From positions 32,001 through 96,000 of IMG/VR virus record IMGVR_UViG_3300030060_007423: a stretch of 64,000 bases of DNA. One strand, given 5' to 3'. This DNA comes from a virus. This document shows, in pieces, positions 18,105 to 33,246 of the stretch; within the stretch, counting starts at the first letter, position 1, and each line of letters opens with the position of its first letter. The position numbers and the translations under genes were made by a program. The notes under the pieces were generated by a model. It made no database searches and was not told the origin of the DNA. It was given only the letters and a program-made list of their open reading frames with translations.

Positions 18105-19154
18105 ATGTCAAAAAGCAGATACTTTTCAATACTTGAAACACTACAGGAGAATACTGATACTCCTTCTAACCCCAATGATAGAATATTAATCGTTGACGGG
18201 CTAAATACATTTATCAGAGCATTTGCAGCAAACCCAGTAACAAATGAAGATGGAATACATGTTGGTGGAATAACTGGTACACTAATGTCAATTGGATACG
18301 CAATAAAACAAATTAAACCAACACGTGTTATTATTTGTTTTGATGGAAAAGGTGGTAGCCAAAGAAGAAGAAAAATATTTCCAGATTATAAAGCAAATCG
18401 TAGAGTAAAATCTAGGCTTACACGGCATGGAAATCATAATACAATGGAAGATGAATCATTGTCTATGAAACAACAATTAATGAGGTGTGCTCAATATTTA
18501 CAACAATTACCAGTTACTGTTTTAAGTGTTGAAAATATTGAAGCAGATGATAGTATGGCATATATTTCTCAACAGGTATATCCTGATAGTCAAAAGTTTA
18601 TTATGTCAACAGATAGGGATTTTTTACAATTAGTATCTGACAAAGTACATGTATGGTCACCAACAAAAAAGAAGTTTTATTTTAAGGAAACAATAATGGA
18701 AGAGTATGGTATACCATCTCATAACTTTTTATTATATAGAACAATTGAAGGTGATGCATCTGATAATATCCCAGGAATTAGAGGTGCAGGTAGAAAAACC
18801 ATTGCAAATAGAATTCCTATAATAACAGAGAACAGGACAGTAACTATTGATGAAATAATTGATTTTACAGCACAAAATTCAAAATATAAAATATTAAAAA
18901 CAATTTCTGAATCAAAAGAATTGTTAGATATGAATTATAAACTAATGCAATTAGATGAGGTAGATATATCAGGTTCAGCAAAGACAAAGATAATGAATAC
19001 AGTAAGGTCACCTATCCAACGATTAGTAAAATATGAATTTCAAAAAATGATTTTAGAAGACAAAATCAATGGTTCAATTAAAAACCCAGACTTATGGTTA
19101 AAGCAAGTATTTTTACCATTAGACTCTTATGCAGGAATGACAAATGACAAGTAG
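18105..19154 (+). CDS. 5'-3' exonuclease / flap endonuclease (PolI N-terminal, T4 RNase H-like)
   Basis: LIVDGLN, CFDGKGG..RR..FPDYKANR, EADD, STDRDFLQL, GDASDNIPGI.G.G.K. Confidence 0.95.
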   Translation: MSKSRYFSILETLQENTDTPSNPNDRILIVDGLNTFIRAFAANPVTNEDGIHVGGITGTLMSIGYAIKQIKPTRVIICFDGKGGSQRRRKIFPDYKANRRVKSRLTRHGNHNTMEDESLSMKQQLMRCAQYLQQLPVTVLSVENIEADDSMAYISQQVYPDSQKFIMSTDRDFLQLVSDKVHVWSPTKKKFYFKETIMEEYGIPSHNFLLYRTIEGDASDNIPGIRGAGRKTIANRIPIITENRTVTIDEIIDFTAQNSKYKILKTISESKELLDMNYKLMQLDEVDISGSAKTKIMNTVRSPIQRLVKYEFQKMILEDKINGSIKNPDLWLKQVFLPLDSYAGMTNDK

Positions 19155-20505
19155 AATATCTGATTACGGTACAATATTTCAAGTAAAGTTAATAGCCTCA
19201 CTATTTACAGATAAGGCATTTCTTCAACAAATTACAGATATTCTAGAACCTAAAATGTTTGAAAATGAAGCAAATTTTTACATTGTAAAAGAAATCCAAA
19301 ATTACTTTAATGAATATAAAGCTCCTCCAACCTTAGAGGTAATGAAAGTGAAGGTTGCTGAAATAGAAAGTGAACTTCTTAAACAAACTGTAGTTGATAC
19401 ATTAAAGGAAGCATATAGAAATTTGGAAGCTTCTGATTTGGATTTTGTAAAACAACAAACTCTTGACTTTTGTAAAAACCAATGCATCAAATCTGCAATA
19501 ATGGATTCAGTTGAATTACTTAAGTTTAATGATTTTGATGGAATTAAATCTAAAGTTGATGCAGCAATGAAAGCTGGTGTAGAAAAGAATGTTGGCCATG
19601 AGTATAAAAATGACGTTGATGAAAGGTATTTGGAAAGTGTAAGAAACACTATAACAACTGGCTGGGATGTAATTGATGATATTGCCGATGGTGGTTTAGG
19701 GAAAGGTGAACTTGGAGTATTTGTTGCTCCTGCAGGTATTGGTAAGTCATGGGCATTAGTAAATGTTGGTGCAAATGCTGCAAAGGCTGGACTAAATGTT
19801 ATACACTATACTTTAGAGCTAAATGAGGCTTATGTTGGATTGAGATATGATAGTGTATTTACTGGTATATCTGCACAAGATTTGAAATTTAATATTGAAG
19901 AGGTAAAAAAGACAGTTGAAAATATGAAGGGAGATTTAATTGTTAAGCAATATCCAACAAAGTCTGCTTCAGTTTCAACAATTGGTGCGCATATTGAAAA
20001 ATGTAGGGTGCAAGGTTTCAAACCGGACTTGGTGATTGTTGATTATGCTGACCTATTAAGAGACATAAGTGGAGGCCGAGAAGTACGACATATGCTAGGT
20101 AACATTTATGAAGACTTAAGAGGACTAGCTGGTGAACATGAAATTCCGGTTTGGACTGCATCACAAGCAAACCGTTCAGCACTAGAAGAAGATGTAATTG
20201 GAGCAGAGAAAATTGCAGAATCATATAGTAAAATAATGACAGCAGATTTTGTTGTTTCATTAAGTAGAAAAATAGAAGATAAATTAGCCGGAACAGGTAG
20301 ATGGCACGTAATTAAAAATAGGTTTGGACCTGACGGAATGACATTTCCAAGTAAAGCAAATATGTCAAATGGTCAAATGCAAATATTTGAATCAAATTCT
20401 GTGCAGGGACAAGAGACACAAAAGGACATGAATAATCATAACGAATACTTAAGAAAAATATTAAAAAATAAGTACAAAGAACTTGATAAAGACAACAATA
20501 GTTGA
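19144..20505 (+). CDS. Replicative DnaB-family helicase (T4 gp41-like)
   Basis: APAGIGKS Walker A, HYTLEL, IVDYADLL, WTASQANR, KNRFGPDG. Confidence 0.95.
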   Translation: MTSRISDYGTIFQVKLIASLFTDKAFLQQITDILEPKMFENEANFYIVKEIQNYFNEYKAPPTLEVMKVKVAEIESELLKQTVVDTLKEAYRNLEASDLDFVKQQTLDFCKNQCIKSAIMDSVELLKFNDFDGIKSKVDAAMKAGVEKNVGHEYKNDVDERYLESVRNTITTGWDVIDDIADGGLGKGELGVFVAPAGIGKSWALVNVGANAAKAGLNVIHYTLELNEAYVGLRYDSVFTGISAQDLKFNIEEVKKTVENMKGDLIVKQYPTKSASVSTIGAHIEKCRVQGFKPDLVIVDYADLLRDISGGREVRHMLGNIYEDLRGLAGEHEIPVWTASQANRSALEEDVIGAEKIAESYSKIMTADFVVSLSRKIEDKLAGTGRWHVIKNRFGPDGMTFPSKANMSNGQMQIFESNSVQGQETQKDMNNHNEYLRKILKNKYKELDKDNNS

Positions 20506-20599: not shown

Positions 20600-22459
20600 A
20601 TGGAAGTATCTAATCAGATTTTATCAAACATAACAGTACATATGAAGTACGCTAAGTTTATTCCAGAACTTGGGAGAAGAGAAACGTGGGAAGAGCTTGT
20701 TACAAGAAACAAAGCCATGCATATTAAAAAATATCCACAATTGAAAGAAGAAATTGAAGAAAAGTACAAGTTTGTGTATGACAAAAAAATACTTCCATCA
20801 ATGCGTAGTTTACAGTTTGGTGGAAAACCAATTGAAATTTCACCAAATAGAATTTACAACTGTGCATATCTGCCTATAGATTCTATTGATGCTTTTAGTG
20901 AAACAATGTTTTTGTTGTTAGGTGGAACAGGTGTTGGTTATTCAGTACAAAAACACCATGTTGAAAAACTACCAATGATACAAAAACCATACCCAAAGAG
21001 AAAGAAAAGATTCTTAATTGGTGATAGTATAGAAGGTTGGGCAGATGCCATTAAAGTTCTTATGAAATCTTATATGAATGGTGGTGGAAGTAGAATAGAG
21101 TTTGACTTTTCAGATATTAGACCTAAAGGTGCAATGCTTGTAACATCAGGTGGTAAAGCTCCAGGACCTCAACCACTTAAAGAGTGTGTATTAAAGGTTA
21201 AGGGTATTTTAGAACAAAAAGAATCTGGTGAAAAATTAACTACAATTGAAGCTCATGATATTGTATGCCATATCGCTGATGCAGTTCTTGCAGGTGGTAT
21301 TCGTAGAGCCGCTCTTATTAGTTTGTTTAGTGCAGACGATGACCAAATGATTGCTTGTAAATCAGGTAACTGGTGGGAGCTAAATCCACAACGTGGTAGA
21401 GCAAATAATTCAGCTTGTTTAATGAGACATAAAATCACAAAAGAGTTTTTTATGGATCTTTGGAAAAGGGTAGAATTATCTGGTGCAGGTGAACCTGGTA
21501 TCTATTTTAATAATGACAAAGACTGGGGAACTAACCCATGTTGCGAAATAGCATTAAGGCCATTTCAGTTTTGTAATTTATGTGAAGTAAATGCTAGTGA
21601 CATAGAAGACCAAGAAGACTTAAATGAAAGAGTTAAAGCAGCTGCATTTATAGGTACACTTCAAGCAGGTTATACATCTTTTCATTATCTTAGAGATATT
21701 TGGAGAGAAACAACAGAAAAAGAAGCACTCATTGGTGTAAGTATGACAGGTATTGGTAGTGGTACTGTTTTAGGATATGATATGAAACAAGCTGCTGACA
21801 AAGTAAAGAGGGAAAATACTCGAGTTGCAAAAATTATTGGTGTAAACAAATCGGCAAGAACAACAACAGTTAAACCTGCAGGAACAACAAGTTTAGTTTT
21901 AGGTACCTCATCTGGAATCCATGCATGGCATAATGATTATTATATCAGAAGAATTAGAGTTGGTAAAAATGAATCAATATATAATTATTTGAAAACAAAC
22001 CACCCAGTTCTAGTTGAAGATGAATATTTTAGACCACATGATACTGCTGTTATTCAAGTACCACAAAAAGCTCCAGAAGGTTCAATACTTAGAACAGAAT
22101 CACCTTTCCAACTATTTGATAGAGTAAAGAGAGTTGCAACTGAATGGGTCAAATCAGGACATCGTAAAGGTTCAAATAGTCACAATGTATCAGCAACAGT
22201 TTCTCTTAAAGAAGAAGATTGGCAGTTGGCTGGCGAGTGGATGTGGGAAAACAGGACTCACTATAATGGTTTATCTGTTTTACCTTATGATGGCGGAACT
22301 TATACTCAAGCACCATTTGAAGATATAGATAAAACAACATATGATGAAATGATGAAGTCTTTAACAGAAGTTGATTTATCAAATGTTGTAGAGCTTGAAG
22401 ATAATACAAATTTATCTGGCGAATTGGCTTGCGCAGGAGGTAGCTGTGAGATTACATAA
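20600..22459 (+). CDS. nrdJ: Class II (adenosylcobalamin-dependent) ribonucleotide reductase
   Basis: PSMRSLQFGG, YNC, GTGVG, VLAGGIRRAA, TNPCCEI, CNLCE, TTVKPAGT, C-terminal CAGGSCEI; no R2 subunit nearby. Confidence 0.93.
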   Translation: MEVSNQILSNITVHMKYAKFIPELGRRETWEELVTRNKAMHIKKYPQLKEEIEEKYKFVYDKKILPSMRSLQFGGKPIEISPNRIYNCAYLPIDSIDAFSETMFLLLGGTGVGYSVQKHHVEKLPMIQKPYPKRKKRFLIGDSIEGWADAIKVLMKSYMNGGGSRIEFDFSDIRPKGAMLVTSGGKAPGPQPLKECVLKVKGILEQKESGEKLTTIEAHDIVCHIADAVLAGGIRRAALISLFSADDDQMIACKSGNWWELNPQRGRANNSACLMRHKITKEFFMDLWKRVELSGAGEPGIYFNNDKDWGTNPCCEIALRPFQFCNLCEVNASDIEDQEDLNERVKAAAFIGTLQAGYTSFHYLRDIWRETTEKEALIGVSMTGIGSGTVLGYDMKQAADKVKRENTRVAKIIGVNKSARTTTVKPAGTTSLVLGTSSGIHAWHNDYYIRRIRVGKNESIYNYLKTNHPVLVEDEYFRPHDTAVIQVPQKAPEGSILRTESPFQLFDRVKRVATEWVKSGHRKGSNSHNVSATVSLKEEDWQLAGEWMWENRTHYNGLSVLPYDGGTYTQAPFEDIDKTTYDEMMKSLTEVDLSNVVELEDNTNLSGELACAGGSCEIT

Positions 22460-22637
22460 ACCTGATTGGATAGAAGAGTTATACCTTAAAGAGTATATTA
22501 ACAAACAATCAACCAAAGATTATTATTGGGAAAATGGCAAAATGGTAATGACAGAAAATTACCATGTAAACCGAGGTTACTGTTGTAAAAACGGATGTAA
22601 GCATTGCCCTTATGAAAACAGTAAATCAACAGGCTAA
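22446..22637 (+). CDS. Cys-rich small protein (DUF5522-like)
   Basis: DYYWENGKMVMTENYH..RGYCCKNGCKHCPY. Start reassigned to GTG 22446 with AGGAGG 5 nt upstream. Confidence 0.75.
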   Translation: MRLHKPDWIEELYLKEYINKQSTKDYYWENGKMVMTENYHVNRGYCCKNGCKHCPYENSKSTG

Positions 22638-22821
22638 AATTTTACAAGATGAGATTAAAGCCAAAAAGTTAGAATTGTCTAAATTACAAGATGATTGTAA
22701 ACATGAAAAAAAACAAATAAAAATGGATGAAACAAACTCCGCAATGTGGGAATGTGAAAATTGTTCAAGACGACTAAGATACCCTACACCTGCAGAGATG
22801 GATATATGGATTAGCAAGTAA
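22612..22821 (+). CDS. Hypothetical protein (coiled coil plus CxH/CxxC)
   Basis: 69 aa; stop codon overlaps the cysteine synthase start. Confidence 0.65.
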   Translation: MKTVNQQAKILQDEIKAKKLELSKLQDDCKHEKKQIKMDETNSAMWECENCSRRLRYPTPAEMDIWISK

Positions 22822-23723
22822 TGAACATATTAAGTAGTTATGTAGGAAATACGCCTTTAGTTCCAATTACTATGGGAGGTTACACAGTCTGGTGTAAATG
22901 TGAATTTATGAATCCCGGTGGTTCTGTTAAAGATAGAATGGCCACCCACATATTAAATAGTGCTGAACACAATAAATTAATCAAAAAAGGTGATACACTA
23001 ATAGAGGCAACTTCAGGAAATACTGGAATTGCTTTTGCTATGTTAGCAGCTGAACGAGGTTATAAAATGAAAATTGTTATGCCGTGCAATATGAGCGAAG
23101 AACGTAAACAAATGTTAAAGTTTTATGGCGCCGAATTAATAGAGGTTGATGCAGGTGATTTTGATGCTGCAATTGATTTAAGAGATACACTTGCAAATGC
23201 TAAGGGATGGTTTAATTGTAATCAGTTTCATAACCCACTAAATATAGAAGCACACTATAAAAATACAGGACCAGAGATAGAAAGACAAGTTAGGTCTCAA
23301 CTTGATAGCTATGATTATGATGGATGGCCTCAAGCATTTGTGGCTGGAACAGGTACTGGTGGAACAATTATGGGTTGTGGAAAATACCTACAAAAACATT
23401 ATCCAGGTATAAGTTTAGTTGCAGTTGAACCAGAAGAAAGTGCCGTCATGTCAGGGATGGAACCAGGCTTACATGGTATACAAGGAATTGGTGATGGTAG
23501 TAAGTTTTTAGTAGACTTAAACAAAATTAGTGATATTATAACTGTACATACAGAATGTGCAAAAAAAGTAGCAAAACATTTGGCATTACGATATGGCTTA
23601 TTTGTTGGAATAAGTGCTGGTGCAAATGTTAAGGCCGCATTTGAATGGTTACGTGACAATGATAAAAAACATGCAATAACTATTCTTTGTGATAGAGGTG
23701 AAAGGTATTTTAGTTGCTTATGA
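22821..23723 (+). CDS. cysK: Cysteine synthase family PLP enzyme
   Basis: GNTPLV, KCEFMNPGGSVKDR, EATSGNTG, GTGTGGT, HGIQGIG, GISAGAN, DRGERY. Confidence 0.92.
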   Translation: MNILSSYVGNTPLVPITMGGYTVWCKCEFMNPGGSVKDRMATHILNSAEHNKLIKKGDTLIEATSGNTGIAFAMLAAERGYKMKIVMPCNMSEERKQMLKFYGAELIEVDAGDFDAAIDLRDTLANAKGWFNCNQFHNPLNIEAHYKNTGPEIERQVRSQLDSYDYDGWPQAFVAGTGTGGTIMGCGKYLQKHYPGISLVAVEPEESAVMSGMEPGLHGIQGIGDGSKFLVDLNKISDIITVHTECAKKVAKHLALRYGLFVGISAGANVKAAFEWLRDNDKKHAITILCDRGERYFSCL

Positions 23724-24430
23724 ATTATTTATTTGATGTAGATGGTACATTAACCCCAAGTAGGTTAAAAATTGATCCAGAATTTGAGAAATTTTTCTTA
23801 AATTGGATGAAAAACAAAGATGTTTATTTAGTTACAGGTTCAGATAAGGATAAAACAATAGAACAAGTAGGTATAAAAATTTGGACAAATGTTACAAGAG
23901 CATATCAATCATGTGGCAATGCTGTTTATGAAAATGGTATGTTAATTGACCAACGTGATTTTATACTAGAGCCTGAACTCAAAAAGCTATTATTAGAATT
24001 TGTAAAGTGGTCAGATTGTCCAAAACAATTTAGTAATCATATTGAGGAAAGAATTGGATTGGTTAACTTTAGTACTATTGGTAGAACTTGTACTCAAGAC
24101 GCAAGAAATGATTATTATAAATGGGACAATAAGATTAAAGAAAGAGAATCTTTTTGTAAAATAATTGAAGAAAAATTTCCAGAATTAGAAGCAACTGTAG
24201 GTGGAGAAATATCAATAGACATTTATCCTAAAGGGCAAAATAAAGCACAAGTGTTAGATGATATAATTGGACCTGTTACATTTTTTGGTGATAAATGCAA
24301 ACCTGGTGGTAATGACTATCCAATAGTAAATCGCTTAGGCATGCTAAATGAAGAAAATGAACTATCAGTAACTGTTCATGAAGTATCTAATTGGAAAGAT
24401 ACATTAAAAATATTAAATAGTTATAAATGA
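23720..24430 (+). CDS. HAD-IIB phosphomannomutase (eukaryotic PMM-type)
   Basis: LFDVDGTLTPSR, VTGSD, HIEERIGLVNFS.IGR, GGEISIDIYP.G..K, FFGDK..PGGNDY. Start set at ATG 23720 (ATGA overlap). Confidence 0.88.
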   Translation: MNYLFDVDGTLTPSRLKIDPEFEKFFLNWMKNKDVYLVTGSDKDKTIEQVGIKIWTNVTRAYQSCGNAVYENGMLIDQRDFILEPELKKLLLEFVKWSDCPKQFSNHIEERIGLVNFSTIGRTCTQDARNDYYKWDNKIKERESFCKIIEEKFPELEATVGGEISIDIYPKGQNKAQVLDDIIGPVTFFGDKCKPGGNDYPIVNRLGMLNEENELSVTVHEVSNWKDTLKILNSYK

Positions 24431-24624
24431 AAAAAGTAAAAATATCATTCTCAAAACCAGTTAAGTTAAATAGGCATGAACCTGTAACTGAAGTGATAAT
24501 AGATAAAACAGTATCCGAAGGTCACAATTCAATTGAAAGAGACATTCAATATATCCTCTGCAATGCAATGAGTGATATGAGATACAAGGGACTAAAATCA
24601 TTTAATGTAGAAATTATAGAATAA
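24427..24624 (+). CDS. Hypothetical protein
   Basis: 65 aa, translationally coupled on both sides. Confidence 0.65.
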   Translation: MKKVKISFSKPVKLNRHEPVTEVIIDKTVSEGHNSIERDIQYILCNAMSDMRYKGLKSFNVEIIE

Positions 24625-25481
24625 TGAAATGTATAGTTGGAAATAATTTAACAGCATTGTTAGCATCTCACATATTTAGTGATTTAGATTTTTATAACCA
24701 TGAAAAACAAATGGTTGAAGAATATACATACATTCCTACAACCGCATCTATTATTGATATATTAGATTGTTTAGGTTTAGACTTTTCAATAAAATCATTT
24801 AAGTGTTGTTTTGATAATCGTGGAAAACTATCTGCAAAATTTGATGAAACATTTGTAAATATTTGGTGTATACATACAAGAGGCAAATCAGTTGTTGAGA
24901 AAAGTTACATTGATAATTTATCACATAAGGTAAGTTACATATCAATAAATGATTTACCACCACTTGAAAGTCTAAATATATTAAAATCAGTTTTACTAGA
25001 AAAATCAAATGCAAAATCAACAATATCAGGCATTGAAGAATTAGAAGATTACAAAAAAGTTTTGTGGTGCCATGATTTGCGATTACTCAATAGTGGCATT
25101 ATAACTGAATATGTTGATAGTTATCAGTATATATGTAAGCATTCAGAAGTAGATGGTATAAACCAAATATTTGATGTTGTATATAGCATAGGAAAACCAT
25201 ATTACAGAAAAATTTACTCAGGAGAAAATGTAATATATAGTGCAATGCGAAAAATATATGACAAAACAGTTGATGATAATACAGTTTTAGAATCATCACC
25301 AACAATACAGATTGTTGACAACCTTAGATTAAATTCATTCAAAAAGTTTGACTTATTAGGTGTATATTCACAATGGGATTTAGGTATGAGTTTAGGAAAG
25401 GTACTTATGCGTTGCAATGAACTTAGAGAATATTACATTGATGATAAAAAAATATCTAAAAATATTTTTATTTCTCAATAA
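24624..25481 (+). CDS. Degenerate FAD-binding protein (UDP-galactopyranose mutase-like fold?)
   Basis: N-terminal CIVGNNLTALLAS is a decayed GxGxxG dinucleotide motif; C-terminal LLGVYSQWD..M resembles the GRxAxW/Y...MD motif of Glf-like flavoproteins. Confidence 0.4.
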   Translation: MKCIVGNNLTALLASHIFSDLDFYNHEKQMVEEYTYIPTTASIIDILDCLGLDFSIKSFKCCFDNRGKLSAKFDETFVNIWCIHTRGKSVVEKSYIDNLSHKVSYISINDLPPLESLNILKSVLLEKSNAKSTISGIEELEDYKKVLWCHDLRLLNSGIITEYVDSYQYICKHSEVDGINQIFDVVYSIGKPYYRKIYSGENVIYSAMRKIYDKTVDDNTVLESSPTIQIVDNLRLNSFKKFDLLGVYSQWDLGMSLGKVLMRCNELREYYIDDKKISKNIFISQ

Positions 25482-25495
25482 TTTTTGTTATATTA
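25458..25495 (+). promoter_or_regulatory. Class-1 promoter motif
   Basis: AAAAATATTTTTATTTCTCAATAATTTTTGTTATATTA. Confidence 0.7.
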
Positions 25496-25524
25496 GATAA
25501 AATAAAGAAAACAGGTTATATACT

Positions 25525-26394
25525 ATGAGAAAATATTGGTCAGTACCAAAAACCGAGTCAGGTAGATACAGCGGTTTACATGAAGCTTTTTATTGGGAAT
25601 TACAAAATATTGTGAATCAACGAAACACAGTAAAAAGTCGTGGAACAAATCAAAAAGAAGTATTGTTTAGAAGTTTTATTATTGATGACCCAACAAATCT
25701 AGGAATTTGGTGGCCAAGTAGAAAATTTAATGAAACATATACATTAGCAGAATTTCTTTGGTATTTGTCAAGAAACCCAAATGCAACTAATATTGGTAAA
25801 TTTGCAAGAATTTGGTTAAACATTAAAGACAACGAGGATAATGTAGAATCAAATTATGGCTGTTATGTTTTTGGAAATCAATGGAACTGGTCTGTAAATG
25901 AATTAACAAAAGACAAGGATAGTCGGCGTGCAACATTTGTTATAGGACAACCATATCATAAAACAAAAAATCCAAATGATATACCATGTACACAATACTT
26001 ACAGTTTTTTATAAGAAATAATAAACTTCATATGGGAGTAAGTATGAGAAGTAATGATATTATTTTTGGAATGTCAAATGATATTTTTATATTTTGTTTA
26101 TTTCAACAATTAATGTATAATGAATTAAAACAAGTATACTCAGATTTAGAACTTGGTTCATATTATCACCATGCAGGAAGTTTACACTTGTATGAAATGC
26201 ACAATGAAATGGCAAATAATATTTTAGTTATTGACGGTGAGGATACTGAATATTATGGAAAGCATTATAAATTAAAAGAACATATAACATTAGATTATAT
26301 ACAACAAACTAAAATGTATTTACCAACTAAAGATATGACAAAAGAAGAAATTGGTGAATATGCAAATGATATTAGTAAAAGTTTATTTATATGA
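25525..26394 (+). CDS. Thymidylate-synthase-family dCMP-modifying enzyme (dCMP hydroxymethylase-like)
   Basis: SNYG, DSRRA, DIPCT (catalytic Cys), MRSNDIIFGMSND with Asp at the dCMP-specificity position, GSLHLYE. Confidence 0.85.
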   Translation: MRKYWSVPKTESGRYSGLHEAFYWELQNIVNQRNTVKSRGTNQKEVLFRSFIIDDPTNLGIWWPSRKFNETYTLAEFLWYLSRNPNATNIGKFARIWLNIKDNEDNVESNYGCYVFGNQWNWSVNELTKDKDSRRATFVIGQPYHKTKNPNDIPCTQYLQFFIRNNKLHMGVSMRSNDIIFGMSNDIFIFCLFQQLMYNELKQVYSDLELGSYYHHAGSLHLYEMHNEMANNILVIDGEDTEYYGKHYKLKEHITLDYIQQTKMYLPTKDMTKEEIGEYANDISKSLFI

Positions 26395-26675
26395 AAAAGA
26401 AAGAATCAATATTAAAAAGAGCAGACGGTATAATCAATAACCGTTCAGAAGAAAAAGAAAGAAAATACGGACCATTTAGCGAAGGCATGGAAAGAGCAGC
26501 TAAAATTGCAAGTGGTATGACAGGAAAAGACTTTGTAGCAGAAGATATGTACGCTGCACTAGTTGCACTAAAATTATCAAGACACTCATATAACTATAGG
26601 GAAGATAATCTACTTGATGCTGTTGCGTATTTAGGAGGTTTGGATAACTATATAAAGGAAAATAAAAATGGCTAG
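26391..26675 (+). CDS. DUF6378-like protein
   Basis: R...YGPF...A.I...LVALKLSR...EDNLLDAVAY pattern. Confidence 0.75.
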   Translation: MKKKESILKRADGIINNRSEEKERKYGPFSEGMERAAKIASGMTGKDFVAEDMYAALVALKLSRHSYNYREDNLLDAVAYLGGLDNYIKENKNG

Positions 26676-26853
26676 AAAAATAGTAAGAAAATGGAACCCA
26701 GATTATAAAAAAGCATGGGTAAGGGTAGCTTTACAAAATGCATTAAGTACAATAGATTATGGTGAGCTATCAACCGCAAGTAAAAGACTTATATCTCAAG
26801 TACTAGCAGAATGTGATATAAAGGCAAAGGAAAAAGAGGAGATGGTAAAATGA
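26668..26853 (+). CDS. Hypothetical protein
   Basis: 61 aa, overlaps both neighbours. Confidence 0.6.
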   Translation: MARKIVRKWNPDYKKAWVRVALQNALSTIDYGELSTASKRLISQVLAECDIKAKEKEEMVK

Positions 26854-27287
26854 AAATATCAAAAGTAAGAGAAGTAAAAACACCAATAAGAGCAAATAGT
26901 ACAGACGCAGGAATAGATTTTTTTGTACCTGAAGACACAAAGAGATTCACATTATCACCAGGAGATTCTTGTCTTATTCCATCAGGTGTAAAAGTAAATG
27001 TACCTGAAGGGTTTGCTTTAGTAGCATTTAATAAATCAGGAGTTGCAGTTAAAAAATCTTTACATGTTGGGGCATGTGTAGTTGACTGTGGCTATCAAGG
27101 AGAAGTTCACATTAATCTAACAAATGTTGGTGATTGTGAAACTGATATAAATCCCGGTGATAAAATAGTTCAGTTTGTATTATTACCTTTAGGCAATCCT
27201 AAAGTAGAATTGGTAGAAGAAAGCAACTTATATGAATCAGAATCTTCAAGAGGTGAAGGAGGATTTGGAAGTACTGGGACTAAATAA
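26850..27287 (+). CDS. dut: Trimeric dUTPase
   Basis: AGIDF, KSG, VVDCGYQGEV, GDKIVQ, RGEGGFGSTG. Confidence 0.95.
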   Translation: MKISKVREVKTPIRANSTDAGIDFFVPEDTKRFTLSPGDSCLIPSGVKVNVPEGFALVAFNKSGVAVKKSLHVGACVVDCGYQGEVHINLTNVGDCETDINPGDKIVQFVLLPLGNPKVELVEESNLYESESSRGEGGFGSTGTK

Positions 27288-27673
27288 TGAGTGGATTAGA
27301 TAACAGACCAAAGACAATATTTTGTGATATAGATGGTACACTAGTAAAACACATGGCGCCATCAGAGGCAACATCTCCATATAACAAAATGGAAGTAATA
27401 CCTGGAACAATTGAAAAATTATTAGAGTGGGAAAGAAAAGGTTACAATATAATTTTAACAACTGGTAGAAAAGCATGTATGAGAAAACAAACTGAAAATC
27501 AACTTGCTGAGGCTGGGATAGTTTATGACCAATTAGTAATGGGATTTGGTGGTGGTGCAAGATACTTGATAAATGATATGAAAACAGATGGAAGAAATGC
27601 CACTGCATTTGCAATAAACCTTAAAAGAAATACAGAAGGAATAAAGGATATAAATTTAGACCTTCCGTACTAA
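27287..27673 (+). CDS. Small capless HAD-family phosphatase
   Basis: FCDIDGTL, LTTGR, YDQLVMG, LIND. Confidence 0.85.
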   Translation: MSGLDNRPKTIFCDIDGTLVKHMAPSEATSPYNKMEVIPGTIEKLLEWERKGYNIILTTGRKACMRKQTENQLAEAGIVYDQLVMGFGGGARYLINDMKTDGRNATAFAINLKRNTEGIKDINLDLPY

Positions 27674-27684
27674 TTGAGATAGTT

Positions 27685-27906
27685 ATGATAATAAGAACAA
27701 CTAATAAAAATAATAAATACGAGTATTCAAAGTATAAACCAGGCGATGTGTTTGAAGTAATAAATGATTTTGGTGAATACTATACTGCAAGATTTTTGTC
27801 AGGTAGTAAAGCAGATGATATATGTGCAGTTAAAAAAACAGATTGTGTACAGGTGCATTTAGGTAGTTATAAAACTCCAGGCCCAGAAACAATGACAACA
27901 GATTAA
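27685..27906 (+). CDS. Hypothetical protein (SH3-like)
   Basis: 73 aa; YKPGDVFEV. Confidence 0.6.
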   Translation: MIIRTTNKNNKYEYSKYKPGDVFEVINDFGEYYTARFLSGSKADDICAVKKTDCVQVHLGSYKTPGPETMTTD

Positions 27907-27907
27907 T

Positions 27908-29491
27908 ATGAATAACACAACAGTAATAATACCAGCAGCTGGGTTGGCAACAAGAATGAGGCCACTTTCAAGTAACATGTCAAAGGCAATGATACCTGTT
28001 TGTGGTAAACCTATTATTTCATACATCATAGATGAATTATTAAAATATGATAGTGTAAATGAAATAATCATTGTTGAAAATAAATTGCATGATATTAGTG
28101 AGTTTGTTAAATCTACATATTCATTTGTTGAAAACACATTTAAGTTTGTTGAACAAAAAAACCCTAAAGGGCCACTCCATGCAATTGAAGTAGGTTGGAA
28201 AAAATCAACAAAGAAAGACAACTCTATATTGGTCTGGTTAGGTGATACTATTTGTCGTGATAAATTAAATTTTGATAGTCCAGGATTTTTAGGTGTATCA
28301 AAAATTGAGCAAAAATCAAGATGGTGTTTAGTTGATAGTGACGGTAAAACATTTTATGATAAACCTGATACAGATGTACCAACAGATTCTGCTCTTATTG
28401 GTTTATATTATTTCAATGATAGAAAATGGTTTAATGACTCCATTAAGAAAGGAATGAATAAACCTCAACATAAAGGTGAACATCAAATAGCTGCACTACT
28501 TTCAGAATATCTTACCTATATACCTAAATTTGAGCTATTAGATACTAAAGAATGGTATGATTGTGGTGAATTAAAAACGTATTATGAATCAACAGCCCGT
28601 TTAATGCAAGGTTCATCTAGAGAGTTCAATACACTTGAGATAGATACATTTTTAGGTACAATTACTAAAAAGGCAACTGGCGATAAAGCACTTAAGATTG
28701 AGAAAGAAAAGACTTGGTTTAGTACATTAAGTGATACACAACGGCTATTTGTACCACAAATTTTAGAATCTCAACATGGCGAAATGAAAATGTCATGGGA
28801 AGCAGGTACACCACTAAATGAAGTTTGGTTATATGAAAGAATGAATGCTGATACATGGATAGGTGTTACAAACTCAGTGTTAGATATATACCACAAAGTA
28901 TTCTATAATTCAGGAAAAGAAAGACTTGCAGATTGCTATGAAATGTATATTCAAAAAAATATGGATAGATTAGATAGTGATATGTATAGTGATTTTGTGG
29001 CAAAGGATACTGCAAAAAATTTCATTAAATCTTCAGGCCTTAGATTATTAAAGACAACTAAATGGAGTAATAGAATTCATGGTGATTTACATTTAGGTAA
29101 TATGTTGTTTAATAGTCATAATGGTAGAATTAAGTTACTAGACCCAAGAGGCCATTTTGGAATGTCAGAGTTTTCTGGTGATTCACAATATGATATGGGT
29201 AAATTAATGCATGATTGGTACTGTGGATATATGATGATATTATCTGGAAGATATCACATTGAAGGCTCAGATGTAATACTACATTGGGATGAAGAAAAAA
29301 GAAATAAAATATTAGTTAATATGCTAATTAAAATGAAAGGTTATGGGTATGATGTTGAAAATATTAAGAGACTTTCAATAATGTTATTTTTAACATGTAT
29401 CCCATTTCACCAAGACAATCCAGAAAGATGTAGAGCTTTTTGGTTACGAGCAATGAATTTAATATATAGGGAATTTAGAAATGAAAAATGA
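27908..29491 (+). CDS. Sugar-phosphate nucleotidyltransferase fused to an aminoglycoside/choline-kinase-like domain
   Basis: N-terminal IPAAGLATRMRP...KAMIPV.GKP, WLGD, GLYYF, WYDCG; C-terminal HGDLHLGN, LLDPRG, YDMGK. Confidence 0.88.
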   Translation: MNNTTVIIPAAGLATRMRPLSSNMSKAMIPVCGKPIISYIIDELLKYDSVNEIIIVENKLHDISEFVKSTYSFVENTFKFVEQKNPKGPLHAIEVGWKKSTKKDNSILVWLGDTICRDKLNFDSPGFLGVSKIEQKSRWCLVDSDGKTFYDKPDTDVPTDSALIGLYYFNDRKWFNDSIKKGMNKPQHKGEHQIAALLSEYLTYIPKFELLDTKEWYDCGELKTYYESTARLMQGSSREFNTLEIDTFLGTITKKATGDKALKIEKEKTWFSTLSDTQRLFVPQILESQHGEMKMSWEAGTPLNEVWLYERMNADTWIGVTNSVLDIYHKVFYNSGKERLADCYEMYIQKNMDRLDSDMYSDFVAKDTAKNFIKSSGLRLLKTTKWSNRIHGDLHLGNMLFNSHNGRIKLLDPRGHFGMSEFSGDSQYDMGKLMHDWYCGYMMILSGRYHIEGSDVILHWDEEKRNKILVNMLIKMKGYGYDVENIKRLSIMLFLTCIPFHQDNPERCRAFWLRAMNLIYREFRNEK

Positions 29492-30752
29492 AAACATTAA
29501 AGTAGCTATCTTTGTTTTAGGTGGTGCAATTAAATTTGTAAAGAAGAATCTTAAACGTGCTGATGGAACTAATGAGTATTATAAACTTATAAAGTCACTC
29601 TGTGCTAATCCAAAAATTGGTGAAGTACTAATTATTCAAAAAAGTGATTGGGGAAAACTTGACGATGAGTTAAAACAAGAATATGACCCACGTGGAGTTT
29701 TAAGATATATCTATGATGAATTAGACCCAAAGGATATTAGACCTGATAAGGGTGAAGATATGCAATTGACATTAAACTATCAAAAGCTTGATGAATATCT
29801 AAATCACGATGAAACAAAACCAGATTTTGGTTTAGGATTTATTGGACCTGGTTATATGACAAATAATGTTATACCAAATTTTTTAGATGGTGTTCGTGAT
29901 CCTAGTTCAAAAGTAAAACTTTTAGGTATGACATATAATTATTCTTCACCAATTGTACACTACTTAAATAAATCAGACCTTCCTTGGTTTATGATATGTA
30001 CAGATCCAAGATATACAAAGCCAACATTCAAAGCAAAGGATACTGTAAACTATCCAAAAGAAATAATTGCACAATACAACACAACAAGTATTTGGCACAG
30101 CTTAAAGGAATATAGAAACGATGCTGAATTTGAAGATAAGACATTAAATGTAAGATATAGTGGAATAGAAAAACTTAATCTTGTAGATGAAGAAATTATC
30201 AACCCAGATAATAGCAGACCTAATAAATTTACAATAGTTGCAATGCAAAGTGTAACAGGTCAAGCAACAAAGGACAAAAGGTTTGATGCAATTAAGGAAT
30301 GGATTCTTGACCGTGATACAAACCAAGAGGTTGAAATATATGGAAAATGGAAGGAACACTTTACAGATGGTTACCCACAATTTAAGGGATATGTTACACC
30401 AGCTGAAATAGACCAAAAGTTTAAGGAAACTAGGTATACATTAGTTGTACCAATTGGACCTGATTGGGTAACAAGCAAATATGCTGAGGTACTCTTAATG
30501 GGTGTTGTACCTTTTTTCCATCCAACATACGATACACAAGGAAATGTTTTACCACTTAATCACTTTTGTAGGGTTTCAAGTCCACAAGAATTTTATGATA
30601 AAATGAAATTCTTAGATGATGTCCCAGAAAAGAGAATACAATTGGTTAAATTATTACAGGACAATTTAATAAAAAATGTTACAGATGGATCATTTGTATA
30701 TGACATTGTAAATAAATCATTAGAAAACACAAATATAGGAGTTAGAATATGA
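29481..30752 (+). CDS. DNA glycosyltransferase, T4 beta-glucosyltransferase-like
   Basis: KVAIFVLG N-terminus, ICTDPR (like BGT FTDIR, catalytic Asp100), C-terminal WVTSKYAEVL..GVVPF....YDTQ...FCRVSSPQEF.DKM..L, which parallels the BGT C-terminus as recalled. Confidence 0.7.
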   Translation: MKNENIKVAIFVLGGAIKFVKKNLKRADGTNEYYKLIKSLCANPKIGEVLIIQKSDWGKLDDELKQEYDPRGVLRYIYDELDPKDIRPDKGEDMQLTLNYQKLDEYLNHDETKPDFGLGFIGPGYMTNNVIPNFLDGVRDPSSKVKLLGMTYNYSSPIVHYLNKSDLPWFMICTDPRYTKPTFKAKDTVNYPKEIIAQYNTTSIWHSLKEYRNDAEFEDKTLNVRYSGIEKLNLVDEEIINPDNSRPNKFTIVAMQSVTGQATKDKRFDAIKEWILDRDTNQEVEIYGKWKEHFTDGYPQFKGYVTPAEIDQKFKETRYTLVVPIGPDWVTSKYAEVLLMGVVPFFHPTYDTQGNVLPLNHFCRVSSPQEFYDKMKFLDDVPEKRIQLVKLLQDNLIKNVTDGSFVYDIVNKSLENTNIGVRI

Positions 30753-31972
30753 GCGAAATAAAATGGGCAACTATTATCCCACTTATAGGTGGTAGTGCAA
30801 TAGGTTGCAATATGACAACAAAAAATCAACCAGTAGGACACTTAACATATAATGCTTTTGCAGCAAATGAATCACATATTAGAAGACATTGGCCAGATGT
30901 ACCATATCATTCTTTAGATGAGGGAACTATTCCTAATTTAGGTTCTCTTGATTTTGTAAATAGTGTATGCCCATGTGCTGGGTTATCGATGTTAAATTCA
31001 TCTGCTATTGAAGGTAGTATTAATAAGAGAGGTAGTGATGCTGCACAGAATGAATGGATGTATAAATCAACTAGAGTTGTATTGGAAAATTATAAACCTA
31101 AAGTATTATGGGGTGAAAATGCACCGGGACTATTTACCAAGCTTGGTGAAGGCGTAGTTGAAAAATTAAAAGCTATTGGAAAGGAATATGATTATAGTTT
31201 TTCAATGATTAAAACAAATACAGAATTACATGGTATACCACAAAGAAGAATTAGAACATTTTACTTTTTTTGGAAAGGTACTAAGCCACCTATATTTGAT
31301 TGGTATAAAAAAGACTGTAAAACATTAGCAGATTATTTAGCAGAAGTACCAGCTGATGCAAGTTGTCAAGATATGTTTATGGTACCAGGAACTGTAACTG
31401 ACCACTTTAAGCCATATCAGTTTATTCTTGAAAGAGAGGGTAAAACACATCAGGAATTTGTTGAATGGTGGAATCATGGAACGTTATATCAATACCTTGA
31501 AAAATATGAACTTGTACATGACTGTATTGATTGGTTAAAGAAATACCACCCAGAAGCAGGCTTTAGTAAAAAGAATGGTACAAATACATTTATCAGTATG
31601 TTAGAACATGTACTTAAAAAGAGGTCAATGGGATTAGGATATTGGGATAGTTCACCTCATATTTTTAGTAAATCATTTAATGCATTGATTGGTAGAAACA
31701 TGTTTAATGGTGTACACCCAACTGAAAATAGGTACTTAAATGTTAGAGAATTTTTACACTTAATGGGATTACCTCACGACTTTGCAATTGAAGATGTAAA
31801 GCAAGTAAATCATATTGCACAAAATGTACCAACATGTACTGCAAGAGATATGACTGAACAAGTTGTAAAATATATCAATGGTGAATTACAAACAGCAGAT
31901 GGCTATTTTGTAAAGCAAGACAATACGAATAGAAAAATTACACAAGAATCTTTACAAACGCAATTGTTTTAA
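30749..31972 (+). CDS. C5-cytosine DNA methyltransferase-family protein with atypical motif I
   Basis: IIPLIGG (motif I variant), VCPCAGLS (IV), GENAPG (VI), PQRRIRTF (VIII), RYLNVRE (IX), IAQNVP (X). Confidence 0.85.
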   Translation: MSEIKWATIIPLIGGSAIGCNMTTKNQPVGHLTYNAFAANESHIRRHWPDVPYHSLDEGTIPNLGSLDFVNSVCPCAGLSMLNSSAIEGSINKRGSDAAQNEWMYKSTRVVLENYKPKVLWGENAPGLFTKLGEGVVEKLKAIGKEYDYSFSMIKTNTELHGIPQRRIRTFYFFWKGTKPPIFDWYKKDCKTLADYLAEVPADASCQDMFMVPGTVTDHFKPYQFILEREGKTHQEFVEWWNHGTLYQYLEKYELVHDCIDWLKKYHPEAGFSKKNGTNTFISMLEHVLKKRSMGLGYWDSSPHIFSKSFNALIGRNMFNGVHPTENRYLNVREFLHLMGLPHDFAIEDVKQVNHIAQNVPTCTARDMTEQVVKYINGELQTADGYFVKQDNTNRKITQESLQTQLF

Positions 31973-31973
31973 C

Positions 31974-32201
31974 ATGTCACCAGAGGTTCAAAAAATAATA
32001 TATGAAGCGGCAATAAAGGCAGGTGATGAACTAAAAGGTAAATTACCTCCTCACCGCTTTCACCCAAAAGGTAGAAATTCATATGCACATGTTTTTGAAA
32101 GAATTAGAAGCAAAATGGGAAAGAGTTACAAACAATGTGATGATTCTGATGCAGAACAGATAATAAATCTCATAGAATACTATGTAAAGAATCCTTGTTA
32201 A
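31974..32201 (+). CDS. Hypothetical protein
   Basis: 75 aa; LPPH..HPKGRN.YAH motif. Confidence 0.7.
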   Translation: MSPEVQKIIYEAAIKAGDELKGKLPPHRFHPKGRNSYAHVFERIRSKMGKSYKQCDDSDAEQIINLIEYYVKNPC

Positions 32202-33169: not shown

Positions 33170-33246
33170 GGTGGTGATAGCTCAATAGGTTAGAGCATTG
33201 GATTGTGGTTCCAAAGGTTGTGAGTTCGATTCTCATTTACCACCCA
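33170..33246 (+). tRNA. tRNA-His(GUG)
   Basis: G-1 at 33170; acceptor GTGGTGA/TTACCAC; D-arm GCTC/GAGC; anticodon arm TTGGA-TTGTGGT-TCCAA; T-arm GTGAG-TTCGATT-CTCAT; discriminator C. Confidence 0.95.

Follow-up and report, generated by a model that had tools for sequence, protein, structure and literature searches.

Gene content and layout of the cassette

The window (the whole 64,000-nt stretch analysed, positions 32,001 to 96,000 of the 170.8-kb IMG/VR record IMGVR_UViG_3300030060_007423) contains a set of tightly packed genes, all on the + strand, identified from gene calls with Pfam matches. A gene for a eukaryotic-type phosphomannomutase of the HAD-IIB class (PMM; 23714..24430, start 23714 or 23720; PF03332, E 7e-29) is followed by orf65 (24427..24624), which has no family match and is 64% identical in the related locus L006, and by orf285 (24624..25481), encoding a shortened protein with a UDP-galactopyranose mutase (UGM)-like fold. 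Next lie genes for a thymidylate synthase (TS) homologue (25525..26394; PF00303, E 2e-14), a DUF6378 protein (26391..26675; PF19905, E 4e-9) and a trimeric-type dUTPase (26850..27287; PF00692, E 2e-19), the last two separated by orf61 (26668..26853; 75% identical in L006), whose only Pfam match, to SesA, is below the cut-off (E 0.006). A small, AfhF-like HAD phosphatase with a DxDxT motif (27287..27673) and an AfhE-like NTP_transferase–kinase fusion (27908..29491; PF00483, E 1e-20) flank orf73 (27685..27906; 61% identical in L006), which likewise has only a sub-threshold Pfam match. The set ends with a GT-B-type glycosyltransferase (GT; 29481..30752), a distant homologue of T4 β-glucosyltransferase (BGT), and a C5-methyltransferase (C5-MTase) family protein (30749..31972; PF00145, E 2e-14).

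Genes abut or overlap across 22612 to 32201 with a single gap, of 43 nt, before the TS gene, and a 4-nt overlap joins the C5-MTase start to the GT stop codon. The genes named in the initial annotation are all present on one strand, and RSNDIIFGMSND lies exactly at 26047-26082 in the TS homologue. Its description of one operon behind one promoter is not demonstrable: a promoter scan returned 63 sites where chance alone would give 69, the 43-nt gap contained none of them, and the same scan found no terminator-like site on the + strand. Because the entire 19-36 kb stretch is co-directional, the limits of the cassette are not set by visible signals.

PMM is absent from L006, whose GT is 93% identical, as well as from every other related locus; in L006 cysK is directly followed by the orf65 homologue, with no PMM between them. 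PMM homologues are present in cyanophages S-SSM7 and P-TIM68, outside such a cassette. PMM is thus probably an accessory metabolic gene and not the pathway member it had been taken for.

The orf285 product has the fold of UGM, in keeping with its earlier description as Glf-like, and gives no Pfam match to UGM or NAD_binding_8. It and its closer homologues have G-N-N-L-T-A at the FAD-binding GxGxxG, which distant homologues keep. Judged from these residues, the dinucleotide-binding motif is degenerate and the flavin-binding glycines are lost, which makes the furanose sugar formerly proposed from this gene a weak inference. Rhizobium phage RL38J1, which makes galactosyl/glucosyl-5-hydroxycytosine and has a phage UDP-galactopyranose mutase, is a DNA-glycosylating phage that encodes a UGM-fold protein.

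The dUTPase scores 102.9 bits against TIGR00576 (cut-off 102.55), and Enterococcus phage 9183 has a dUTPase at the same cassette position. The order TS-DUF6378-dUTPase recurs in loci L139, L140 and L162, and DUF6378 adjoins TS or dUTPase in L141 and L157, with DUF6378 identities of 62-76% across these five. DUF6378 therefore shows tight linkage to TS and dUTPase; searches of the PDB and the Atlas gave no lead to the protein. The record, at about 80% completeness, yielded neither a MazG-type dCTPase nor a dNMP kinase, so full replacement of cytosine is not assured.

Predicted activities of the TS homologue, donor enzymes and glycosyltransferase

The active-site signature of the TS homologue (D143/C146/R166/S167/N168/D169/D177) is identical to that of T4-type gp42, as it is in 43 of the 50 TS homologues compared (47 from cassette loci and three reference sequences). 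The catalytic cysteine (E. coli C146) is Cys155 in a PCTQ motif that aligns with gp42, as does RSNDIIFGMSND; the latter contains Asp at the N177 position, the dCMP-specifying residue that had already been picked out. An acidic residue occupies the L143 position. The 5-hydroxy-dCMP synthases of RB69 and HY126 are flavin-dependent and marked by D169N (Lee et al., NAR 2026, PMC13326640). As a candidate for this RB69 gp48/HY126 type, the window enzyme fails on the marker: its signature reads DCRSNDD, with Asp at 169, against ECRSQND in the HY126 synthase, with N169. The retention of D169 predicts hydroxymethyl-dCMP as the product, and hence a dCMP hydroxymethylase of the T4 gp42 type, the chemistry being read from four residues with a D169N rule that comes from one paper. 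Among the hydroxymethyl-, hydroxy- and methyl-dCMP products initially entertained, the first is therefore favoured and the second disfavoured.

In a PDB sequence search the closest matches to the TS homologue, by a wide margin, are solved hydroxymethylases, namely MilA (E 3e-20) and T4 dCMP hydroxymethylase (1e-18). Entries 9iqu and 9iqc (234 and 238 residues), deposited only as 'thymidylate synthase', score 8e-5; from their length and neighbouring accession codes we infer that they originate from HY126. No second TS, no ThyX and no TET/JBP gene were found in the 170.8-kb record.

The two donor genes resemble those with which HY126 makes UDP-arabinose, AfhF and AfhE (Lee et al., NAR 2026, PMC13326640). 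The DxDxT motif of the HAD protein is invariant in its family alignment, window protein included, and the family profile matches AfhF with an hhalign probability of 99% (E 6e-18); a pairwise BLASTP search with only the window copy, the most divergent member, gave no match. The predicted reaction of the enzyme is dephosphorylation of a sugar bisphosphate at the terminal position. The fusion consists of an N-terminal NTP_transferase and a C-terminal APH/choline-kinase-like kinase, and aligns with AfhE over its full length (residues 6-525; 24% identity, E 2e-17), sharing G-x-G-T-R and the kinase motifs HGDxxxxN and DPRG. It matches 206 phage records, RB69-like phages annotated for UDP-arabinose biosynthesis among them, and its best PDB match is LicC (1jyk). 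With identity to AfhE at only 24%, its substrate may differ, and no arabinose-5-phosphate isomerase was found in the record. These homologies support the proposal that the phage synthesizes its own sugar donor. They also uphold the suggested link to RB69-type phages at the level of the donor genes. The base that such phages arabinosylate is now known to be 5-hydroxycytosine and not 5-hydroxymethylcytosine (hmC): the Afh pathway product in HY126, RB69 and DLP3 is arabinosyl-5-hydroxycytosine (Lee et al., NAR 2026, PMC13326640).

The GT has a GT-B fold, and both Foldseek and VIA place T4 BGT (family GT63) as its closest solved structure, at only 16% identity, consistent with its original assignment as a BGT-like DNA glycosyltransferase. 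Its C-terminal domain aligns with that of BGT (hhalign E 9e-5) and it matches the PHROG β-glucosyltransferase (E 1.6e-4). The UDP-binding residues of BGT are R191/R195, R269 and E272; hhalign pairs R195, R269 and E272 with R267, K333 and E336 of the GT, columns with little or no variation among 35 sequences. Fully invariant in the 35 are E32 (GTNEYY) and D175 (TDPRY), whose contexts resemble PSSETIY and FTDIRL (compare Glu22 and the catalytic base Asp100 of BGT) in an N-terminal domain where the profile alignment is unreliable. On fold and conserved residues, we predict a DNA hmC glycosyltransferase.

Related cassettes and the C5-methyltransferase

The GT family is represented on at least 169 IMG/VR contigs and in two cultured phages, Pseudoalteromonas phage XG4 (order TS-HAD-fusion-GT-GT-MTase) and Enterococcus phage 9183 (TS-dUTPase-HAD-fusion-GT). 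The cassette is thus not singular and belongs to a widespread family with cultured members. The IMG/VR relatives have the order TS-dCMP deaminase-donor module-GT-MTase, adjoining gp45/gp44/gp62/RegA. TS, GT and MTase are constant and the donor module varies, being an NTP_transferase fusion, split kinase and nucleotidyltransferase genes or a CTP_transf_like enzyme, with or without an epimerase. Replication modules in more than 70 loci link the GT with a dCMP-type TS and a DNA MTase, and an AGT-type DNA glucosyltransferase takes the position of the GT in other lineages.

TS-associated GT-B clusters have already been surveyed in metaviromes, and the accessible part of that survey gives counts, and no functional reconstitution, of ThyS-associated clusters in which a GT-B gene adjoins a TS homologue (Pyle et al. 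2023, bioRxiv 10.1101/2023.12.21.572611). Those clusters, taken together with the MT/5mYOX/GT clusters of phages (Burke et al. 2021, PMC8256090), resemble the present family in the GT-B gene beside a TS homologue, in the nearby genes for a methyltransferase, gp45, dCMP deaminase, APH phosphotransferase and epimerase, and in the grouping of a C5-MTase with a DNA GT. In the MT/5mYOX route the methylase supplies 5mC to a TET-type oxidase; here no TET/JBP gene was found, and hmC would come through TS. In MetaGPA, cytosine-modified contigs from metaviromes are linked with TS, PRA-PH and dCMP deaminase.

The C5-MTase profile matches M.HaeIII and M.HhaI. Motifs IV (PC(A)), VI (ENAP, of the ENV type) and VIII (PQxRxR) are all present; motifs I (FxGxGG) and X (GNAVP) appear as the variants PLIGG and IAQNVP, and the GG of PLIGG aligns with the GG of motif I in 3g7u. 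Across 31 sequences PLIGG, PC, ENAP, QxRxR, RE..MG.P and IAQNVP are invariant, and conservation extends to the acidic D41 and D57; the catalytic and SAM-binding motifs look intact. Among the best 80 of the contigs with the GT family, the C5-MTase adjoins the GT in 77, even though GT identity is only 28-45% and the surrounding genes vary. It adjoins an AGT-type DNA GT in the L140 group and a BGT-like GT with an epimerase in the L112 group. If cytosine replacement were complete, the C5-MTase would have no obvious substrate; being retained next to DNA GTs of two unrelated families, it may have a further role.

A proposed pathway and its alternatives

We consider it likely that the cassette serves cytosine hypermodification in an uncultured, T4-like marine phage, in a pathway by which hmC is made, a phage-made sugar is attached and a methyltransferase step is included. 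The gp42-type signature, AfhE/AfhF-like donor genes and BGT-like GT all support the hypermodification pathway put forward in the initial annotation. In the first step, judged from its active-site residues, the TS homologue would form 5-hydroxymethyl-dCMP from dCMP ahead of replication, and the dUTPase and DUF6378 protein encoded alongside would shape the nucleotide pool; after phosphorylation, the product would enter DNA through the phage family-B polymerase. In the second, homology to AfhE and AfhF suggests that a host sugar phosphate is turned into an NDP-sugar, probably a UDP-sugar: the fusion would phosphorylate C1 with its kinase half, the HAD phosphatase would remove the distal phosphate and the nucleotidyltransferase half would complete the donor. 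D-arabinofuranose, as in HY126, is one candidate sugar, and orf285 hints, weakly, at a furanose. The GT would then move the sugar onto the hmC hydroxyl in DNA. In the last and least certain step the translationally coupled C5-MTase would methylate cytosines that escaped replacement, so that every cytosine would carry a C5 substituent.

The cassette recombines parts known from T4 and from RB69/HY126. With T4 it shares, besides the TS signature and the BGT-like GT, the placement of both genes in one replication-gene block beside a family-B polymerase (in T4, the adjacent gp42 and BGT genes beside gene 43), and its relatives accompany T4-like clamp, clamp-loader and RegA genes. Unlike the window cassette, T4 draws on host UDP-glucose without donor-synthesis genes and has no C5-MTase, and its gp56 dCTPase and gp1 kinase have no counterpart found in the window record. 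The Afh phages HY126, RB69 and DLP3 (PMC13326640) similarly cluster a fused AfhE and a 128-residue HAD protein, AfhF, with a TS homologue and a DNA GT. They differ in the D169N substitution of their flavin-dependent hydroxylase, in encoding an arabinose-5-phosphate isomerase, in GTs that resemble GT4 enzymes rather than BGT, and in having no C5-MTase in the cluster.

The AfhE- and AfhF-like genes, and the presence of D143 and D177 in both enzyme classes, would also fit a glycosylated 5-hydroxycytosine in the style of RB69, DLP3 and HY126, with the TS homologue a flavin-dependent dCMP hydroxylase and D-arabinofuranose the sugar; given Asp at 169, we regard this base as unlikely. Since product chemistry is not readable with certainty from sequence, the TS homologue might instead make 5-methyl-dCMP (as in XP12) or use dUMP, leaving no hydroxyl acceptor and a different acceptor for the GT. 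This is highly improbable: D177 points to dCMP, hydroxymethyl products correlate with an acidic residue at 143 and the whole signature is that of gp42. A target other than DNA is also improbable. The sugar genes and GT would then act on the envelope, a protein or a small molecule of host or phage, beside a TS, dUTPase and MTase that are ordinary neighbours, yet the best structural and profile matches of the GT are to a DNA enzyme, T4 BGT, and both its linkage to dCMP-type TS and DNA MTase in replication modules and its substitution by AGT-type enzymes speak against this.

For the C5-MTase-like protein, a less probable alternative to methylation of escaped cytosines, though one we take more seriously than those above, is that it forms an integral third component of glycosylation, for instance by flipping bases for the GT or targeting it, or by activating hmC at C6. 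Such a role would explain its kept place beside two unrelated DNA GT families, and it accords with the persistence of GT adjacency despite GT divergence, with the 4-nt gene overlap and with C5 being already occupied in hmC. Against it, the SAM-binding (PLIGG, D41, D57) and catalytic (PC, ENAP, QxRxR) motifs are kept as in working methylases, the cassette occurs without a C5-MTase in Enterococcus phage 9183, L010 and L030, and cyanophage S-TIM5 has the C5-MTase without a GT. A third-component role is compatible with the first three steps of the proposed hmC pathway and touches only the fourth.

Predicted nucleotide and sugar donor

The cassette is made of known parts: a gp42-type hydroxymethylase, a BGT-type transferase and AfhE/AfhF-type donor synthesis. 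The thymidylate synthase (TS) homologue (25525-26394) contains the motif RSNDIIFGMSND exactly at 26047-26082, so the initial annotation was correct in placing it there. In RB69, DLP3 and their relatives the DNA carries arabosylated 5-hydroxycytosine, not arabinosyl-5-hydroxymethylcytosine (arabinosyl-hmC), and the 5-hydroxy-dCMP comes from a TS homologue that binds flavin and is distinguished by D169N (E. coli numbering); specificity for dCMP is conferred by N177D, and non-methyl products go along with an acidic position 143 (Lee et al., NAR 2026, PMC13326640). Alignment of the window protein with T4-type gp42, the phage HY126 enzyme and the cassette homologues identifies D143, C146, R166, S167, N168, D169 and D177 in the window protein. 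This signature is identical to that of gp42, whereas the HY126 enzyme differs in having N169. The closest matches in a PDB sequence search are hydroxymethylases, namely MilA (a CMP hydroxymethylase, E 3e-20) and T4 dCMP hydroxymethylase (E 1e-18), followed by ThyA (E about 1e-6) and 9iqu/9iqc (deposited as 'thymidylate synthase', 234/238 residues, E 8e-5), which we infer to originate from HY126. The source record, an IMG/VR virus of 170.8 kb that is about 80% complete, contains no second TS, ThyX or TET/JBP protein. Because of the gp42-identical signature, the hydroxymethylase matches and the lack of these other enzymes from the record, the predicted product is 5-hydroxymethyl-dCMP. MazG was also sought in the same approximately 80% complete record and not found. 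A dCMP deaminase is encoded elsewhere in this genome (genome positions 121144-121461, outside the window).

Two related loci, L011 (14524-15516) and L075, encode a second TS homologue of 330 residues with E143, D169 and N177. N177 corresponds to a dUMP-type pocket, here combined with the acidic E143, making this protein a candidate dUMP hydroxymethylase alongside the dCMP-type enzyme.

The nucleotidyltransferase-kinase fusion (27908-29491) is 24% identical to HY126 AfhE over its whole length (E 2e-17), with nucleotidyltransferase and kinase motifs common to both, and it matches 206 phage records, some of them from RB69-like phages whose annotation names UDP-arabinose synthesis. Among solved structures its best relative is LicC, as has been reported for its counterparts in RB69 and DLP3. 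The small HAD phosphatase (27287-27673) gives no match to AfhF in pairwise BLASTP on its own; the relation is visible only by family profile, for which hhalign returns a probability of 99%. In HY126, AfhE phosphorylates C1 of arabinose-5-phosphate, AfhF removes the 5-phosphate and AfhE then makes UDP-arabinose (PMC13326640). Donor synthesis in the window phage would most likely follow the same three-step logic. No SIS isomerase or arabinose-5-phosphate isomerase is present in the 170.8-kb record (about 80% complete). A cassette with the fusion and HAD genes is found also in an Enterococcus phage, whose host is not expected to make arabinose-5-phosphate. Another stretch of the window's own genome (L089:6291-10009, genome positions 116290-120008, outside the window) encodes a CTP_transf_like nucleotidyltransferase, an NT5C-type 5'-nucleotidase and an ATP-dependent DNA ligase; the nucleotidyltransferase (201 residues) is 40% identical to the enzyme of an alternative donor module in relatives.

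The glycosyltransferase and its methyltransferase neighbour

The C-terminal domain of the BGT-like glycosyltransferase (GT; 29481-30752) aligns by profile with T4 beta-glucosyltransferase (BGT; E 9e-5), placing conserved R267, K333 and E336 on R195, R269 and E272. Invariant E32 and D175 resemble BGT E22 and D100, in a region where the global profile alignment of the N-terminal domains is misregistered.

Among the best 80 of at least 169 loci with GT relatives, 77 have a C5-cytosine DNA methyltransferase family protein (30749-31972 in the window) adjoining the GT. The methyltransferase family is larger than this GT-linked set, with at least 559 IMG/VR relatives, and recurs in two other designs. 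One (L112:269-6261) combines a family member with a split APH kinase, an NTP_transferase, a BGT-like GT and an NDP-sugar epimerase/dehydratase; the other (L140:1-6165) combines one with TS, DUF6378, dUTPase, a CTP_transf_like enzyme, an AGT-family DNA glucosyltransferase (PF11440) and an epimerase. In both groups the methyltransferase lies 3' of the donor and GT genes. The recurrence of a C5-methyltransferase beside two unrelated DNA glycosyltransferase families may point to a missing pathway step. The catalytic motifs are all conserved, as are the likely SAM-binding residues, and we tentatively suggest that the enzyme would methylate those cytosines left unreplaced. Alternatively, it may serve as a functional partner of the GT.

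In cyanophage S-TIM5, a methyltransferase homologue (31% identity) is encoded 2.4 kb away from a TS homologue; the two genes occupy L171:3781-4617 on the minus strand and L171:7001-8218 on the plus strand, with no GT nearby. The TS homologue has D169 and D177 together with Cys at 143, and may modify dCMP to yield a different product.

Distribution and relation to described pathways

The cassette is widespread among uncultured T4-like phages that appear to be marine. GT relatives number at least 169 in IMG/VR, and in the best 80 of these loci the typical order is TS, dCMP deaminase, donor module, GT, methyltransferase and exonuclease, followed 3' by a T4-like replication block of gp45 clamp, gp44/62 clamp loader and RegA. 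The donor module takes two forms: in one, c23 (an uncharacterised family of about 222 residues) accompanies the fusion and a short HAD; the other consists of a long HAD, a CTP_transf_like enzyme and an unknown protein. Two cultured phages carry the cassette as well, Pseudoalteromonas phage XG4 (TS-HAD-fusion-GT-GT-methyltransferase) and Enterococcus phage 9183 (Tmk-TS-dUTPase-HAD-fusion-GT), so that the predicted base is directly checkable there by mass spectrometry.

The donor module of arabinosyl-5-hydroxycytosine phages is thus also found together with T4-type hydroxymethylases and BGT-like transferases, indicating that modules of the two pathways recombine. TS-associated GT-B clusters that include APH phosphotransferases, epimerases, dCMP deaminase and methyltransferases have already been counted in metaviromes (Pyle et al., 2023 preprint, bioRxiv 10.1101/2023.12.21.572611). 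Our literature search found no description of a hydroxymethylase (not hydroxylase) paired with an Afh-type module, of this BGT-like transferase family or of its near-constant methyltransferase neighbour, and nothing beyond PMC13326640 on AfhE, HY126 or Enterococcus phage modifications. It is possible, though on balance doubtful, that the phage makes an undescribed base, hmC O-linked to a pentose or furanose through an Afh-type kinase-phosphatase-nucleotidyltransferase route, and that the methyltransferase-like protein is an obligatory third component, acting by blanket methylation of residual cytosine or by direct help to the GT. Such a base would be a hybrid of T4 and RB69 chemistries. Hypermodified cytosines decide whether phage DNA is cleaved by restriction enzymes, CRISPR nucleases and type IV systems, and their pathways are enzyme sources for biotechnology.

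Locus layout and further genes

The cassette is embedded in a block of nucleotide-metabolism and replication genes within an AT-rich window (about 31% G+C); the large ORFs listed between 19 and 36 kb are all on the plus strand. A DnaB-type helicase gene (19144-20505) and a class II (B12-type) ribonucleotide reductase-like gene (20600-22459) lie upstream, and a family-B DNA polymerase gene starts downstream at 33205. Between 22612 and 32201 genes abut or overlap, with a 43-nt gap between orf285 and the TS homologue. The plus-strand order is a 69-residue ORF, a cysK-like PALP gene, the phosphomannomutase (PMM) gene, orf65 and orf285 on the 5' side of the gap, and TS homologue, DUF6378, orf61, dUTPase, HAD, orf73, fusion, GT, C5-methyltransferase and orf75 on the 3' side. 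The proposal that a single promoter serves the operon was not upheld: a sigma-70 scan returned 63 sites vs 69 expected from shuffles, with none in the 43-nt gap. The promoter/terminator scan, whose result is not above chance, found no terminator-like site on the plus strand. A megablast search with the 8.3-kb stretch found no match among 50,697 phage records.

The window's DUF6378 protein (26391-26675) is 62-76% identical to its counterparts in five loci that have otherwise diverged, far above the conservation of its neighbours. The order TS-DUF6378-dUTPase recurs in three of these (L139, L140 and L162), and in L141 and L157 DUF6378 adjoins one of the two partners. It matches no PDB sequence even at E 10, resembles neither T4 gp56 (E 0.03) nor the PRA-PH protein encoded by relatives, and belongs to no named Atlas cluster, giving no lead to function or fold.

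The cysK-like PALP enzyme (22821-23723, E 2e-67) is encoded immediately 5' of PMM (23714/23720-24430; PF03332). In L006, a close relative whose GT is 93% identical, cysK is followed directly by an orf65 homologue. PMM is missing from this locus and from every other related locus; we rejected it as a core pathway gene and treat it as a probable accessory.

The initial annotation described orf285 (24624-25481) as a Glf-like flavoprotein. The protein has no family hit, a Pfam scan of its homologues gives sub-threshold Rossmann matches only, tblastn against phage records finds no match and a word-based search recovers close relatives only. An exhaustive HMMER search reaches distant homologues that retain GxGxxG and a GRYAQW motif, on contigs too short for gene context except L172. 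The Glf-like label holds for the fold, and mutase activity is doubtful: in orf285 and its closer relatives the flavin-binding glycines are replaced by G-N-N-L-T-A, and these proteins are about 100 residues shorter than UDP-galactopyranose mutase. A 36%-identical homologue of orf285 again lies immediately upstream of a TS homologue, showing that the linkage of the two genes is real within this sub-lineage.
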